Origin: Phycisphaerales bacterium
GTDB lineage: Bacteria; Planctomycetota; Phycisphaerae; Phycisphaerales; UBA1924
Length of the DNA: 64,000 nucleotides
Assembly: GCA_026982335.1 (NCBI GenBank)
Contig: JALSHH010000044.1
Span: forward strand, 85 to 64,084
Direction of reading: 5' to 3'
The position numbers and the translations under genes are program-made. The notes beneath the pieces were generated by a model, which was not told where the DNA came from, did no database searches, and was given only the letters and a program-made list of their open reading frames with translations. Positions 15,718 through 43,776 of the stretch are shown piece after piece; position 1 is the stretch's first letter, and the number at the start of each line of letters is the position of its first letter.

Positions 15718-15762
15718 GGGGGATGATAGGAGTCCTAACGAGCCGTGACCGTGAGGAAGGGC

Positions 15763-19331: not shown

Positions 19332-19417
19332 GGGTGTGCCTTTCGGAAGGGGATGCGATATACGGGAATGATATGCAATGGTGTTGCGGAAGACCAAATC
19401 CACAGAACAGGGCATTC

Positions 19418-19497
19418 AACGAGCCGCGACCGTAAGGGAGCGGTCTTTTCTGTCGCTCAAGAAAAGCAAGACCGCTCCCATACGGTCGCGGCTCGTT
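19418..19497. repeat. 80-bp palindromic REP/MITE-like element (intact copy)
   Basis: Left arm is AACGAGCCGCGACCGTAAGGGAGCGGTCTT (19418-19447) and right arm is AAGACCGCTCCCATACGGTCGCGGCTCGTT (19468-19497). The arms are 29 of 30 complementary, and the inner CTTTTC/GAAAAG extends the stem. The left arm recurs 29/30 inside valS at 42509-42538. Confidence 0.9.
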
Positions 19498-19510
19498 CAG
19501 AACAACTTCT

Positions 19511-20017
19511 CTATTTCCCCGCCGGTTTGGCGAAAAGCCCTTGCTGGTCGGCGCTGGTCGTTGGGCGGGCGGAGAGATCATCGAGTTCGCGTTGGATGTC
19601 TTCGAGGGTCGAGAGTTGGAGGTGCTCGGTCGCGAACCGAATATAGGCAATCTTGTCCACATCGCGGAGCTTGGTCATCACGCGTTCGCCGACGAGTTGA
19701 GAGGGGACTTCGCGTTCGAACTCACTGTGAAGTTCTTCCTCGACCGTCTCGGCAAGTTTGAGTTTGATATCTTCGGAAATCGGGCGCTTGCCGCAAGCGT
19801 TGGAAACACCCTTCATGATGTTCTCGACCGAGAACGGCACCCGCGAACCATCGCGTTTGACAACCATCAGCCGACCGGCGGGCTCGACGCGTTCGTAGGT
19901 CGTGAATCTGCGTTCGCACTTGAGGCAATGCCGACGACGACGAATGACCGCCCCCCCTTCGGTCGAGCGGGAGTCGATGACTTTGTCCTGGTTGTAACTA
20001 CAGAATGGGCAGATCAT
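19511..20017 (-). CDS. nrdR: Transcriptional repressor NrdR
   Basis: MICPFCSYNQDKVIDSRSTEGGAVIRRRRHCLKCERRFTTYE is the zinc ribbon, followed by an ATP-cone. Confidence 0.96.
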   Translation of the reverse strand: MICPFCSYNQDKVIDSRSTEGGAVIRRRRHCLKCERRFTTYERVEPAGRLMVVKRDGSRVPFSVENIMKGVSNACGKRPISEDIKLKLAETVEEELHSEFEREVPSQLVGERVMTKLRDVDKIAYIRFATEHLQLSTLEDIQRELDDLSARPTTSADQQGLFAKPAGK

Positions 20018-39888: not shown

Positions 39889-42800
39889 ATGACCACGGAC
39901 GCCCCCCAACCCGCTGCCAAATCACCTGCCAAAGACCCCATGAGCAAGTCCTACGCCCCGGCAGACCACGAAGCCCGGATCTGGGATACATGGATCGCAG
40001 CCAACGCCTTCCACGCTGATCCAAACCGCGTTCTCTCAGGCGAAGCCTTACCTTACTGCATCCTCATCCCTCCACCCAATGTAACCGCTGCCCTGCATTT
40101 GGGGCACGCCTTGAACAACTCGATTCAGGACATCCTCATCCGCGCCCATCGCATGAAAGGCTACGAAACCCTCTGGATGCCTGGCACCGACCACGCCGGC
40201 ATCGCCACCCAGACCATGGTGGATAAAAAACTCAAAGAAGAAGGCAAACCCGGTATCGCCGACTACAAAAAAATGGAGCTCGAAGGCAAAACTGATTCGG
40301 ACGGAAAGTCTGGGCGAGAGCAGTTCCTCAAACTCGTCGACAACTTCAGGGATGAATACGAAGCCCGCATCACCCATCAACTCCAAAAAATGGGATGCTC
40401 GTGCGACTGGAAACGCCAACGCTTCACCATGGACGACATCTGCGCCCGCGCCGTCCGCGAGGCCTTCTTTCAACTCTTCAAAGACGGGCTCATCTACCGC
40501 GGCAAGCGCCTCGTCAACTGGGACCCCGTGACCCAAACCGCACTGGCGGACGACGAAGTCGAGATGGAAGAAATCGAAGGATATTTCTATTACCTCCGCT
40601 ACCCACTCGTCCAAGACAATCCAGAAGACCCCACGATCCCCGTCACTTGGGAGCAGCTTGTCACACGCGGCTACCCCGATGCTGAAAACCACCCCGAGGA
40701 CGAACAAGCCTGGATCACCGTCGCCACCACCCGCCCTGAAACCTACATGGGTGACACCGCCGTGGCCATCAATCCCAAAGACCCTCGCGCCCCAGCGGTG
40801 CGAGGCTTCAAAATCATGCTCCCACTGGTCGGACGCATCATCCCAATCATTGAAGACGACTATGTCGTCCTCCCCGTCAAATACGGCGGCCAGCCTGGCG
40901 ATACCAAGGCAGAAATGTCCACCGGATTCCTCAAAGTCACTCCGGCCCACGACCAGAACGACTGGATGATCGGACAACGCCACAACCTCGACCCCATCAA
41001 CATCATGGCTCCCGACGCGTCCATCTCCGATCAGCACGGGTGGGAAGACATCGGTGACGCCCACATCTTCGTTGGCAAATCCCGCGAGGAGGCTCGCGAG
41101 TTGGTCATCAAAGAGTTCAAATCTCGAAGTGTCGCCGAAGGTTCCGAAGGCTCACTGCTCGAGAAAATAGTCCCCTACACCCACAGTGTCGGTCATTCGT
41201 ATCGCAGCCACGCCGCCGTCGAGCCGTACTTGAGTGACCAGTGGTACTGCAAAGTGAGCGACGACAAACTCCGAGGCAACGCCCAACGCGCATTGGTTCC
41301 CGAGCAACGGACGAACGCTTCGATAGAAGCGTGGCGCGAATCCGCTCCCTCTTCTCCCGGTAGAACGGGCTTCCAGCCCGTTTCTTCAGTTTCCTCTCCA
41401 TCAACCCCCATCCCCAACAAACTCTCCATCCACAGCCGAAACCTCCCCCACTGGCAACTCGGAAGCAGCACCTACTTCGTCACCTTCCGCGCCAAAGAAG
41501 GAACCATAAGCGAGCACGAACGATCACTCGTCCTCGATGCTTGTTTCCATTTTGACAACGACCGAGCCATCGTCCGCCTCGTCACCGTCATGCCCGATCA
41601 TGTCCACATGCTCATTACTCCAAGAAAACTCGGCGAAAATGAGTGGTATCCACTCCAAGACATCATCCACAGCATCAAGAGCTTCACCGCGAATGAAATC
41701 AATCGGAGCAGGAAAGATTCTGGAGCCTTCTGGCAAGCGGAATACTTCGATCGCATTGTGCGTGATGAAGATGAGTTTGAAGAGAAATGGAACTACATGC
41801 TCAACAACCCGGTGAAGGCAGGACTCTGCAAACAACCCGGTGAGTATGTGTGGACACGAAAAGGAGAAAATCAAATAAGAAACGGGCTGGAAGCCTGTTC
41901 TACCGGGGAATCGACCGATGGCACCATGTCCTTCTTCCCCGCCCGCTACGCCAAAACCTACGAAACCTGGCACGACAACCTCCGAGACTGGTGCATCAGC
42001 CGACAACTCTGGTGGGGACATCGGATTCCGGTTTGGAATGGTTCCGTTGGTGGATCTGTCGAAAAACTTGATCGATTTGAATCCACCATGGTTAAGTGGT
42101 GGCGAGAAGGCAAACTAACTTCCCAACTTACGATTGACCCAACCGATCCAAATCCACCACTGAGCAACGATGGAAAACCATTAATTGGGCAAGAGATCGC
42201 TGTTTGCGTTAGGAATCAGAACGACAGTGAAATCATTGAGTTCTTAGAGGAGTACGGCTTTACTCAAGACCCCGATGTCCTCGACACCTGGTTCTCCTCC
42301 GCGCTCTGGCCGCTCTCGACCATGGGCTGGCCAGACGCAACCGCAGCCAAAGCCTCCACCGGCATCGAAGATTTCGAGTCCATGCTCGAAGCCTTCAACC
42401 CGAGTTCCGTGTTGACCACGGCGCGTGAGATCATCACGCTATGGGTGTCGCGGATGACGATGTTCAATCGGTACTTTCTCAGTGAAGATTCCCAACAAAC
42501 CGACTCCCAACGAGCCGCGACCGTAAGGGAGCGATCTTCGAGTTCTCTCGCATCTCAGGAAGAAAAGACCACTTGCTCACACGCGAAGCTCATTGGCCCT
42601 GCCCCCTTCAAAGATGTCTTCATCCACGCCATGATCCAAGACGGCGAAGGACGCAAGATGTCCAAGTCGCTGGGCAACGGTGTCGACCCCCTCGACATCA
42701 TCCACTCCCACGGCGCCGACGCCATGCGATTCACGCTCTGCCAAATGACCACGCAGACCCAAGATGTCCGCATGCCTGTCGTCTGCGATGAGGAAACAGG

Positions 42801-43776
42801 AAAAAATACCTCACCTAAGTTTGATCTGGGACGCAACCTGTGCAACAAACTCTGGAACGCTGCCAAGTTCTCGATGATGATGCTCGAAAAGAACCCGATC
42901 GAGCAAGGGCCACCAATTGATCCACAAGAGTTGACCTTGATTGACCGGTGGATGCTCTCGCGTGTGGTCGATGCGACCAACAAAATCAACACCGCCCAAT
43001 GCAACTACATGTTCAAGGATTACGCCGACACTTTGTACGATTTGTTCTGGCGAGATTTCTGTGATTGGTACCTCGAGTCGATCAAGCCAACCATCGCCGA
43101 CGATCCAAACCAGCGGGCAGTGTTGAGGATCGTTTTCGAATCCATCCTCCGCCTCATGCACCCGGTCATGCCCTTCATCACCGAGACCCTGAGCGAACGC
43201 TTCGCAGATATTCCGATGAACGAGATCATGGGGTTTGGCTTTGCACCGACCAAATCAAACCAGACCCTTTGTCAGTCCGGTTGGCCTGAGCCTGATGATG
43301 AGTTGCGCGATGAGGTCGCTGAAGAGGCCTACGAGCGGATTCGTTCGTTGGTCTCGACCATCCGCGAGGTTCGTGCTCAATCACAGGTCGCGCCCAAGCG
43401 TCGGATTGTTCTGCACGCATCGGGACCACTCGCTGAGGATATCGCTCGGTGGTCGCCTTTGATCGAAACCCTCGCCGGCGTCGAATCGGTCACCGGCGAT
43501 GAACCCGCAAGCCCATCGGCAAGCTTCACCTTTGAAGGCTGCGAATACCAGCTCTCGAATCTCGCCGACGCACTCGATGCCCGAGCCGAAAAAGATCGGC
43601 TCGAAAAAGAACTCGCTTCGATCGAAAAATCAATCAAAGGCATCCAAGGGCGACTCGCCAACCCAGGCTACACCGAAAAAGCCCCCGCCCACCTCGTCCA
43701 ACAGACCCGCGATCAGCTCGCACAACTCGAGAAAGACCGCAACGCGACCCAATCTGCATTGGATAAACTCCGATGA
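39889..43776 (+). CDS. valS: Valyl-tRNA synthetase carrying two in-frame mobile-DNA insertions
   Basis: [14 protein letters not shown] (HIGH), CP1 editing domain, [32 protein letters not shown] and a C-terminal coiled coil. It is 1295 aa versus 951 aa for E. coli ValRS. Confidence 0.95.
   Translation: [1295 protein letters not shown]
41357..41906 (+). mobile_element. IS200/RAYT-type Y1 (HUH) transposase module flanked by hairpin inverted repeats, in frame within valS
   Basis: Left repeat is CCGGTAGAACGGGCTTCCAGCCCGTTTCT (41357-41385) and right repeat is AGAAACGGGCTGGAAGCCTGTTCTACCGG (41878-41906), 28 of 29 complementary. Between them lie [41 protein letters not shown] and [13 protein letters not shown]. 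Confidence 0.85.
42509..42592 (+). repeat. Decayed copy of the 19418..19497 palindromic element, in frame within valS
   Basis: AACGAGCCGCGACCGTAAGGGAGCGATCTT (42509-42538) matches the intergenic left arm 29/30. The following AGAAAAG..AGACC... is a degenerate right arm. It encodes ...[25 protein letters not shown]... between the MTMFNRYF and [11 protein letters not shown] segments. Confidence 0.8.

Follow-up and report, generated by a model that had tools for sequence, protein, structure and literature searches.

How a palindromic repeat came to lie, in frame, within the coding sequence of an essential aminoacyl-tRNA synthetase is the question raised by a 64,000-nt stretch of a Phycisphaerales genome (contig JALSHH010000044.1; the whole stretch is called the window). 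The open reading frame (ORF) encoding valyl-tRNA synthetase (ValRS, gene valS) carries there an 87-nt hairpin-like element in its catalytic domain. The element is most readily explained, with a probability of about 0.85, as an in-frame doublet resembling a REPIN (repetitive extragenic palindromic [REP] doublet forming a hairpin), which belongs to a REP-like family associated with class 3 TnpA-Y1 proteins, was inserted at a length-tolerant turn of the enzyme and later decayed. The coordinates of the features are collected in Table 1.

The first nucleotide of the element, 42508, is the first codon position of the ValRS frame, and its reading contains no stop codon. A preliminary description of this DNA had placed the element at 42509-42592; it does lie there, with an end that was set 2 nt short, the best placement being 42508-42594. 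The reported identity of 29 of 30 positions between 42509-42538 and the intergenic palindrome at 19418-19447 was exact. When the 30-mer CAACGAGCCGCGACCGTAAGGGAGCGGTCT was used as the query, with up to three mismatches allowed, only three matches were found in the window, at 19417-19446 (plus strand, no mismatches), 19469-19498 (minus strand, two mismatches) and 42508-42537 (plus strand, one mismatch); none was expected from 100 dinucleotide-preserving shuffles of the window. The rest of the element had been described as aligning with gaps to the loop and right arm of the intergenic copy and as much more degraded, and this was borne out. Gapped alignment of the spacer and right arm with the intergenic copy gave a score of 28, which no shuffle out of 1000 attained (-11 ± 7), and the right arm was identical to the intergenic arm at 19 of 30 positions. 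Because the spacer and the right arm also align, the whole doublet, and not one arm alone, is homologous to the intergenic copy.

The degradation of the right arm was less random than had been supposed. Its inverted unit, GAGCTTCGCGTGTGAGCAAGTGG, has four mismatches to the consensus of a recurrent variant unit, GAGCCGCGCGCGTNAGCAAGCGG, and nine to the canonical unit in a direct comparison (14 of 23 positions matching); it was not among the window matches at up to six mismatches to the canonical unit. Hand comparison with the variant arm over 26 positions gave five differences, four of which were G to A on the coding strand. Canonical and variant units partner each other at three other loci (L049, L050 and L078), and the ValRS copy was probably inserted as a canonical-spacer-variant doublet. 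Inverted arms, together with a spacer shared between copies, are the attributes of a REPIN, in which two inverted units and a short spacer are copied as one. The earlier label of REP/MITE-like therefore stood in part: the element is palindromic, of REP type and in frame in the ValRS catalytic domain, and its identity as a MITE (a miniature transposable element with inverted repeats) was rejected, since it has neither the terminal inverted repeats of an insertion sequence (IS) nor a target-site duplication. With the junctions marked by slashes, its flanks read gactcc/CAACGAG...CTCATT/ggccct, and those of a second insertion considered below (locus L121) read ggcggt/.../ggcccc; a direct repeat was present in neither.

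An alignment of orthologs, proposed in the preliminary description as a way to find an empty site, bore out the insertion. A search with the C-terminal 624 residues of the protein returned 120 ValRS sequences from Phycisphaerales and related bacteria, 119 loops of which were compared, with the loop length counted between MFNRYF and PFKDV. The loop comprised 5-14 residues in 86 of the 119 orthologs and at least 15 in the other 33, compared to 42 in the window, in agreement with the earlier estimate of about 30 added residues (29 codons). Two close orthologs (L130 and L122), which are 85-88% identical to the window protein over the C-terminal 390 alignment columns, read FLGENEQPGKAPF and FLGENDHPGPAPF, respectively, where the window has its 29 extra codons. 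The corresponding DNA is ctt ggt gaa aac gaa caa ccc ggc aaa gca ccg ttc in L130 and ctt ggc gaa aac gat cat ccc ggc ccg gcc cca ttc in L122; in the window, the 87 nt lie directly 5' of ggc cct gcc ccc ttc. Judged from these alignments, the short loop of the nearest orthologs, which are 83-88% identical over these 390 columns, is the empty site. When proteins were searched with a 96-aa query that covers the insert, the matches were short fragments of ValRS only, and none contained the element.

The insertion site lies approximately 21 residues before KMSKS, at the turn where the WVSRMTMFNRYF helix gives way to the PFKDVFIHA strand, which leads to the KMSKS loop. Thermus thermophilus ValRS (1GAX) has a connection of approximately 3 residues between this helix and this strand. 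Residues 476-509 and 507-565 of 1GAX aligned to either side of the insert, and query residues 38-72 (of 131 aa) had no counterpart, which places the insert at this turn. An AlphaFold2 model of the C-terminal 624 residues had a mean pLDDT (predicted local distance difference test score) of 76 and values below 50 over most of residues 161-258, insert included; the modelled query lacked the N-terminal half of the Rossmann fold and the model was uninformative on the loop.

The conserved part of the repeat is a 23-nt unit, GAGCCGCGACCGTAAGGGAGCGG, with (C/A)N directly before it. The preliminary description had made its proposal depend on the presence of this family elsewhere, and the family was found at three loci in the window and, when one genome per species was scanned with the 20-mer core GCCGCGACCGTANGGGAGCG, at no fewer than 120 loci in other genomes. 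Among the loci listed, most were from Planctomycetota (Phycisphaerae, Planctomycetia, Gemmataceae, Isosphaeraceae, Pirellulaceae and Thermoguttaceae) and Acidobacteriota (Bryobacterales, Solibacteraceae and Terriglobia); the others included several Gammaproteobacteria metagenome-assembled genomes, four Anaerolineae/Anaerolineales and one Verrucomicrobiia. A single Streptomyces match to the core, in a coding region, was probably due to chance. An inverted partner lay within 110 nt of 64 of the 144 copies (44%) among the matches listed, with spacers that varied between genomes.

This cross-phylum unit is identical to entries in Table S1 of Quentin et al. 2018 (BMC Genomics 19:475, PMC6006769), and the left arm of the window element matches it at 22 of 23 positions. 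The table gives CCGAGCCGCGACCGTAAGGGAGCGGA, with the fold .....((((..((....))..))))., for the flanks of class 3 genes in Legionella pneumophila, and close variants of it for Solibacter usitatus and Planctomyces limnophilus. In that paper, class 3 Y1 HuH proteins are reported from Planctomycetes, Acidobacteria and Proteobacteria, and atypical hairpins that have a CnGA foot lie on the flanks of their tnpA-Y1 genes; S. usitatus has approximately 600 copies. The likeness extends beyond the unit itself to the hairpin (CCGC-GA-CC-GNNA-GG-GA-GCGG), a foot of 4-5 nt, the spread over mainly Planctomycetes, Acidobacteria and Proteobacteria, and a dispersed, multi-copy and mostly intergenic distribution (PMC6006769). 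A full-text literature search for the repeat sequence and its peptides returned no paper; the link was made through Table S1.

When the published structure was tested on 42 unit variants, 90.5% of cells paired, compared to 32-55% with the partners slid. One pair was changed from CG to GC in five of the 42 variants, which gives modest support since those five may share descent. The variant units ACC..GG, CGC..CA and CCC..GA keep the small inner pair, CC/GG or GC/GC, around the GNNA loop. Most cross-phylum copies have the foot CCGA, CAGA or CGGA, and a common subfamily, to which the three window copies and L121 belong, has ACGA. The ends of the repeat read (A/C)NGA-GCC... and ...GGC-TCNT, and neither a GTAG nor a CGTC tag was found there.

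Taken together, these results are consistent with a history in which a doublet of two inverted REP-like units and their spacer would have been inserted into the ValRS coding sequence at the helix-strand turn. The 87-nt insert, having a stop-free frame, would have been translated into 29 extra hydrophilic residues, and the allele would have survived because the turn tolerates extra length. Later decay, mainly of the right arm, would then have removed most of the hairpin potential of the mRNA. The spacer that the ValRS copy shares with the intergenic copy of its own genome indicates a source within the genome. By analogy with the published association, and not from this genome itself, mobilisation would be attributed to a class 3 TnpA-Y1 protein acting on hairpins in single-stranded DNA.

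Table 1. Positions in the window of the ValRS element, the ORF that hosts it and related repeats.
Feature	Positions	Strand	Remarks
ValRS ORF	39889-43776	+	1295 aa; carries both the REP doublet and, in frame, a RAYT module
In-frame REP doublet inside ValRS	42508-42594	+	87 nt = 29 codons; reads QRAATVRERSSSSLASQEEKTTCSHAKLI
Left arm of doublet	42509-42538	+	foot AACGA and canonical unit GAGCCGCGACCGTAAGGGAGCGA (42512-42534)
Spacer of doublet	42539-42564	+	26 nt; homology, with indels, to the intergenic copy's 20-nt spacer (gapped alignment)
Right arm of doublet	42565-42594	-	decayed variant-type (A') inverted unit at 42569-42591
Class 2 RAYT module with bracketing hairpins	41360-41903	+	module at 41425-41865; inverted GTAG-tagged hairpins GTAGAACGGGCTTCCAGCCCGTT at 41360-41382 (+) and 41881-41903 (-)
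Intact intergenic doublet, same family	19417-19498		30-nt arms, 97% complementary; 20-nt spacer; -62.2 kcal/mol
Solo degenerate unit taacGAGCCGTGACCGTGAGGAAGGGC	15737-15762	+	intergenic, between two minus-strand genes; 4 mismatches to canonical unit

The same loop has been filled more than once. In the ortholog P0050 (locus L121) it reads caacgagccgcgaccgtgagggagcgg-acctctgcggaagaagaaacc-tctccctcacggtcggggctcgtt, followed directly by ggcccc, and comprises a well-preserved 72-nt doublet of the same family as that of the window. P0050 shares 97.9% identity with P0001, whose loop is empty (GDEDHAGKAPF), and only 78.5% with the window protein; the two gains were therefore independent, and that of P0050 was recent. 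Two other hairpin families were found in the same loop in P0059, P0063, P0021, P0062 and P0066. The loop peptide is GTGFQPV...ARPT in P0059 and P0063, with a GTGG foot in L125; GTGV[SP]PV...RRDACAT in P0021 and P0062 (L124); and GTGVPPV...PDARAT in P0066. P0063 is 95% identical to both P0050 and P0001, P0021 is 97.7% identical to P0019, whose loop is empty, and P0062 is 86.7% identical to the window protein. The C-terminal end of the loop in P0068, a partial sequence cut at its N-terminus, resembles that of P0021, and the loop of P0065 contains DGRDARPT. Altogether, at least five independent gains, from three repeat families, are evident at this one surface turn among close relatives.

Such recurrence would also be expected if the loop DNA were a preferred target of hairpin repeats mobilised by Y1-HuH enzymes, rather than merely a place where insertions are tolerated. 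Transposases of the IS200/IS605 Y1 type insert beside a specific tetra- or pentanucleotide, and this site specificity counts in favour of targeting, as does the finding that the two independent insertions of one family share the 3' junction (...GCTCGTT/GGCCC and ...GCTCATT/GGCCC) and the reading frame. The repeat families, however, occupy differing positions within the loop; in L125, for example, the codons caa gag aag atc ccc lie between the element and GGC. GGCCC does not follow the intergenic copies, the events number only two, which is too few, and insertions in an essential gene are strongly filtered for positions that are tolerated. The differing positions favour tolerance of the turn as the main filter, and the junction shared by both class 3 insertions leaves room for target preference as well; on balance, targeted integration was considered doubtful as the source of the recurrence. 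An in-frame RAYT (REP-associated tyrosine transposase) module was present at another ValRS linker in two lineages, those of the window and P0066. The broader notion that the turn before KMSKS is a sequence-specific landing site for Y1-HuH hairpin repeats and that, together with the RAYT linker, valS is a preferred REP refuge in this order is a speculative one, and rather unlikely. If it were true, the empty P0001 and filled P0050, along with the older copy of the window, would be before-and-after pairs from which the target rule of class 3 TnpA-Y1 could be revealed.

Another way in which several alleles could have acquired a filled loop is the spread of a short insert-bearing segment by homologous recombination or lateral transfer, in place of de novo transposition. 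P0063 and P0059 have homologous loop-plus-element sequences (S.PSGTGFQPV...ARPT.EKIPGPAPF) on backbones that are 67% identical, and the closest relatives of P0063 are empty. Within the clade of P0001, the insert-bearing alleles (P0050, P0063, P0021 and P0068) all read GPAPF after the insert, and the empty ones (P0001, P0014, P0019 and P0020) all read G[KR]APF. This split, and the loss in L121 of the DEDHA residues of its closest empty allele, points either to insertion with local remodelling or to recombination of loop cassettes. For the window element, however, the comparison does not favour transfer: its insert differs from that of L121 in the 5' flank, the spacer length and the type of right arm, the sequence just downstream in L121 follows its own clade and not the window at synonymous sites, and the spacer of the window copy again leads back to its own genome. 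Spread of the segment was consequently judged improbable.

Insertion of a class 3 REP-like doublet remains the preferred reading, and several findings weigh against it. The repeat family has three loci in the 64-kb window and no more. The foot in this genome is ACGA, as against CnGA in the published description (PMC6006769). Neither the window nor the 120 fetched loci yielded a class 3 tnpA-Y1 gene in a crude motif scan (NHVH ... YV[VI].EQ). The decay is asymmetric, with 1 of 30 positions changed in the left arm and 11 of 30 in the right, of which the variant type of the right arm explains only part. The L121 loop is not a clean insert-only allele: besides lacking DEDHA, it has a change from K to P after the insert, and these changes indicate that local remodelling or recombination was also involved. 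Finally, that the 29 added residues, which are hydrophilic, would be translated as part of ValRS is deduced from the open frame.

Retention of the extension as a useful feature was also considered, either because a longer loop beside KMSKS would alter ValRS or because an RNA hairpin would regulate the valS mRNA. The loop has been lengthened repeatedly, as the 33 longer loops in the ortholog set attest, and the window copy has kept an open frame over a time long enough for it to decay. However, the inserted peptides have no sequence in common across the families and the majority of orthologs keep a short loop. Nor is an RNA structure conserved: the predicted hairpin of the family, most stable in the intergenic copy, is strong in L121 (-51.8 kcal/mol) and largely lost in the ValRS copy of the window (-21.9 kcal/mol). 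Di Nocera et al. 2013 (PMC3733652) took the same view of intragenic REPs in general. A selected role was thus considered very improbable, and the insert would appear to be functionally neutral.

Mis-assembly, or a chimeric contig in which the repeat was joined to valS, was considered and rejected as extremely improbable. Metagenome assemblies often break or mis-join at repeats, and the L124 contig ends inside its own loop element. The identical 1295-aa protein was nevertheless recorded on at least two contigs of 50-200 kb, namely European Nucleotide Archive (ENA) ERZ27262642 contig k141_145231 (109,308 nt) and at least one other. The insert is exactly in frame, its divergence from the intergenic copy argues against a collapsed repeat, and similar inserts were found in independent assemblies from other samples.

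The preliminary description had remarked that the element lies in the gene that hosts a RAYT module; a shared gene does not link the two. A Pfam Y1_Tnp match covers ValRS residues 562-627, the motif HVH...YMLNNP is a class 2 signature, and the only two copies of the GTAGAACGGGCTTCCAGCCCGTT REP in the window both flank the module. Since the ValRS RAYT is of class 2 and is flanked by another, GTAG-tagged REP, it is a classical REPtron of a different family and probably not the mobiliser of the element at 42508-42594. A cognate class 2 RAYT flanked by the REP of the element itself was not found in the window, whose sole RAYT is the one between the GTAGAACGGGCTTCCAGCCCGTT hairpins. Comparison of this RAYT with the 120 repeat-bearing loci by tblastn gave one distant match (L001), which did not adjoin a unit. 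ORFs lying between paired units in L046, L019 and L035 proved to be ordinary genes.

A second RAYT within ValRS was observed in P0066 (ENA ERZ1757541; L131, 1340-1918; ValRS approximately 69% identical), at the same linker (WPES.P...STDG.M.F); the other 118 orthologs have none there. Its core is 54% identical to the window RAYT over 144 residues without gaps, and the hairpins on its flanks belong to another family, GTGGCACAGGCGTCCCGCCTGTG. In L131 (213-3690), the gene calls split the RAYT-bearing ValRS into three successive ORFs of 251, 834 and 82 aa, which reflects either frameshift errors in the assembly or a decaying gene.

The definition of REPINs includes class 2 RAYTs and GT[AG]G feet (Bertels and Rainey 2011), and bacterial interspersed mosaic elements (BIMEs) are the pairs of Y and Z REPs of Escherichia coli (Gilson et al.). 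The ValRS element has in common with both the two inverted units and the short spacer, and the spacer recurs among the copies of this genome as if the doublet were the unit that is copied. The pairing of canonical and variant units resembles that of Y and Z units in E. coli. This family departs from REPINs in its foot and, as the literature has it, in the class of its enzyme.

In-frame insertion of such repeats has been described before. Di Nocera, De Gregorio and Rocco (BMC Genomics 14:522, PMC3733652) catalogued intragenic GTAG- and CGTC-tagged REPs in many species, including in-frame monomers and dimers in genes of known function, with dimers that encode 20-30 residues. Their examples include tRNA synthetase genes of X. 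oryzae, E. litoralis and S. alaskensis, and O. terrae of the PVC (Planctomycetes-Verrucomicrobia-Chlamydiae) superphylum (PMC3733652). In-frame insertion, dimers of this length and tRNA synthetase hosts are thus common to both sets; here, in contrast, the tag is neither GTAG nor CGTC, the host belongs to the Phycisphaerales and one loop has been struck independently by three families. In-frame palindromic repeats were first reported in Rickettsia as Rickettsia palindromic elements (RPEs; Ogata et al. 2000, as cited in PMC3733652), of which Di Nocera et al. assign RPE-4 and RPE-6 to the CGTC class. The comparison with Rickettsia made in the preliminary description holds as an analogy, in that both elements lie in frame in coding genes whose orthologs lack the insert; it does not amount to a new phenomenon in a different phylum, given that in-frame REPs were already catalogued in many species (PMC3733652). 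The likeness is one of phenomenon, and membership of the ValRS element in an RPE family by sequence is unlikely from the hosts and base composition. RPE-1 is longer, at approximately 100-150 bp, and AT-rich, and no transposase is known for it.

REPs inside tnpA-REP genes of subclass 2.4, which leave the frame unbroken and are taken to lie in flexible loops, are described by Quentin et al. 2018 (PMC6006769); in that case the host is the transposase itself, whereas here it is a housekeeping aminoacyl-tRNA synthetase. In the portions of that paper used here, the class 3 REP-like sequences appear only on the flanks of class 3 genes and as repeats in high copy number, in contrast to the in-frame doublet in an essential gene found here. 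The in-frame REP phenomenon and the repeat family are therefore already published. What is new is that a class 3 unit doublet is combined with an essential synthetase, that the host belongs to this order, and that several families recur at one turn with close empty-site relatives. These results extend the catalogue of in-frame REPs to a class 3 (CnGA/ACGA-foot) family and to an essential aminoacyl-tRNA synthetase in Phycisphaerales. Filled and empty pairs of this kind are rare, and would be useful for studying the target choice and entry of hairpin repeats and for mapping the insertion tolerance of a class I synthetase.

Low-complexity, repeat-like inserts were also observed at the same two positions of ValRS, in the loop of P0115, P0092, P0098, P0134 and P0073 and in the RAYT-site linker of P0084, P0098 and P0119. 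Examples are SGEVAKWQSGKV, NAQCLVPNA, SPPRGEGGSRSESGEG and AKARRHEGTKG, and further families of short repeats are their probable source. Metagenome scans for the ValRS loop together with the unit found none, a weak negative since the collection also fails to return the Joint Genome Institute (JGI) contig L121.

All three window copies of the repeat have the foot AACGA. The intact intergenic doublet lies between two minus-strand ORFs, one nrdR-like (ending at 19511) and one CoA-transferase-like (starting at 19415), 13 nt downstream of the former. An Rfam scan of this copy returned no family at the gathering score and only sub-threshold matches to miRNA hairpin models, which reflect its generic hairpin shape.

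Elsewhere in the family, the foot-proximal part, ..GTCGCGGCTC plus 2-8 nt, was often tandemly reiterated beside full units (L023, L027, L046, L087, L049 and L077), and L049 contained BIME-like arrays of alternating canonical and variant units. Degenerate doublets of the unit were also seen on Legionella adelaidensis replicons in the plasmid collection, with copies in five records. In one of these (L128, 4001-4070; NZ_LR134420.1) the doublets lie downstream of an ORF for a 154-aa hypothetical, secreted-looking protein, with a probable tRNA gene approximately 230 nt upstream of that ORF; the 154-aa protein is not a transposase.

Units were also found, in other phyla, in frame inside long ORFs with Pfam matches, at L053 (~5257), L033 (~4141), L091 (~4162) and L064 (~1027). 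Of the four, only the CitMHS transporter of L053 (SRDRKGAEALSNGRGS) has a Pfam match that extends to either side of the unit; the match is confined to the downstream side in the DUF6798 membrane protein of L033 and upstream in the Sortilin/BNR protein of L091, and in L064 the unit lies inside the ORF of a DUF7948 protein. For annotation, peptides such as AATVRER, SRDRKGA, RSLTVAA and PLPYGRGS in proteins of Planctomycetota and Acidobacteriota are to be read as signatures of the repeat and not as a protein domain.

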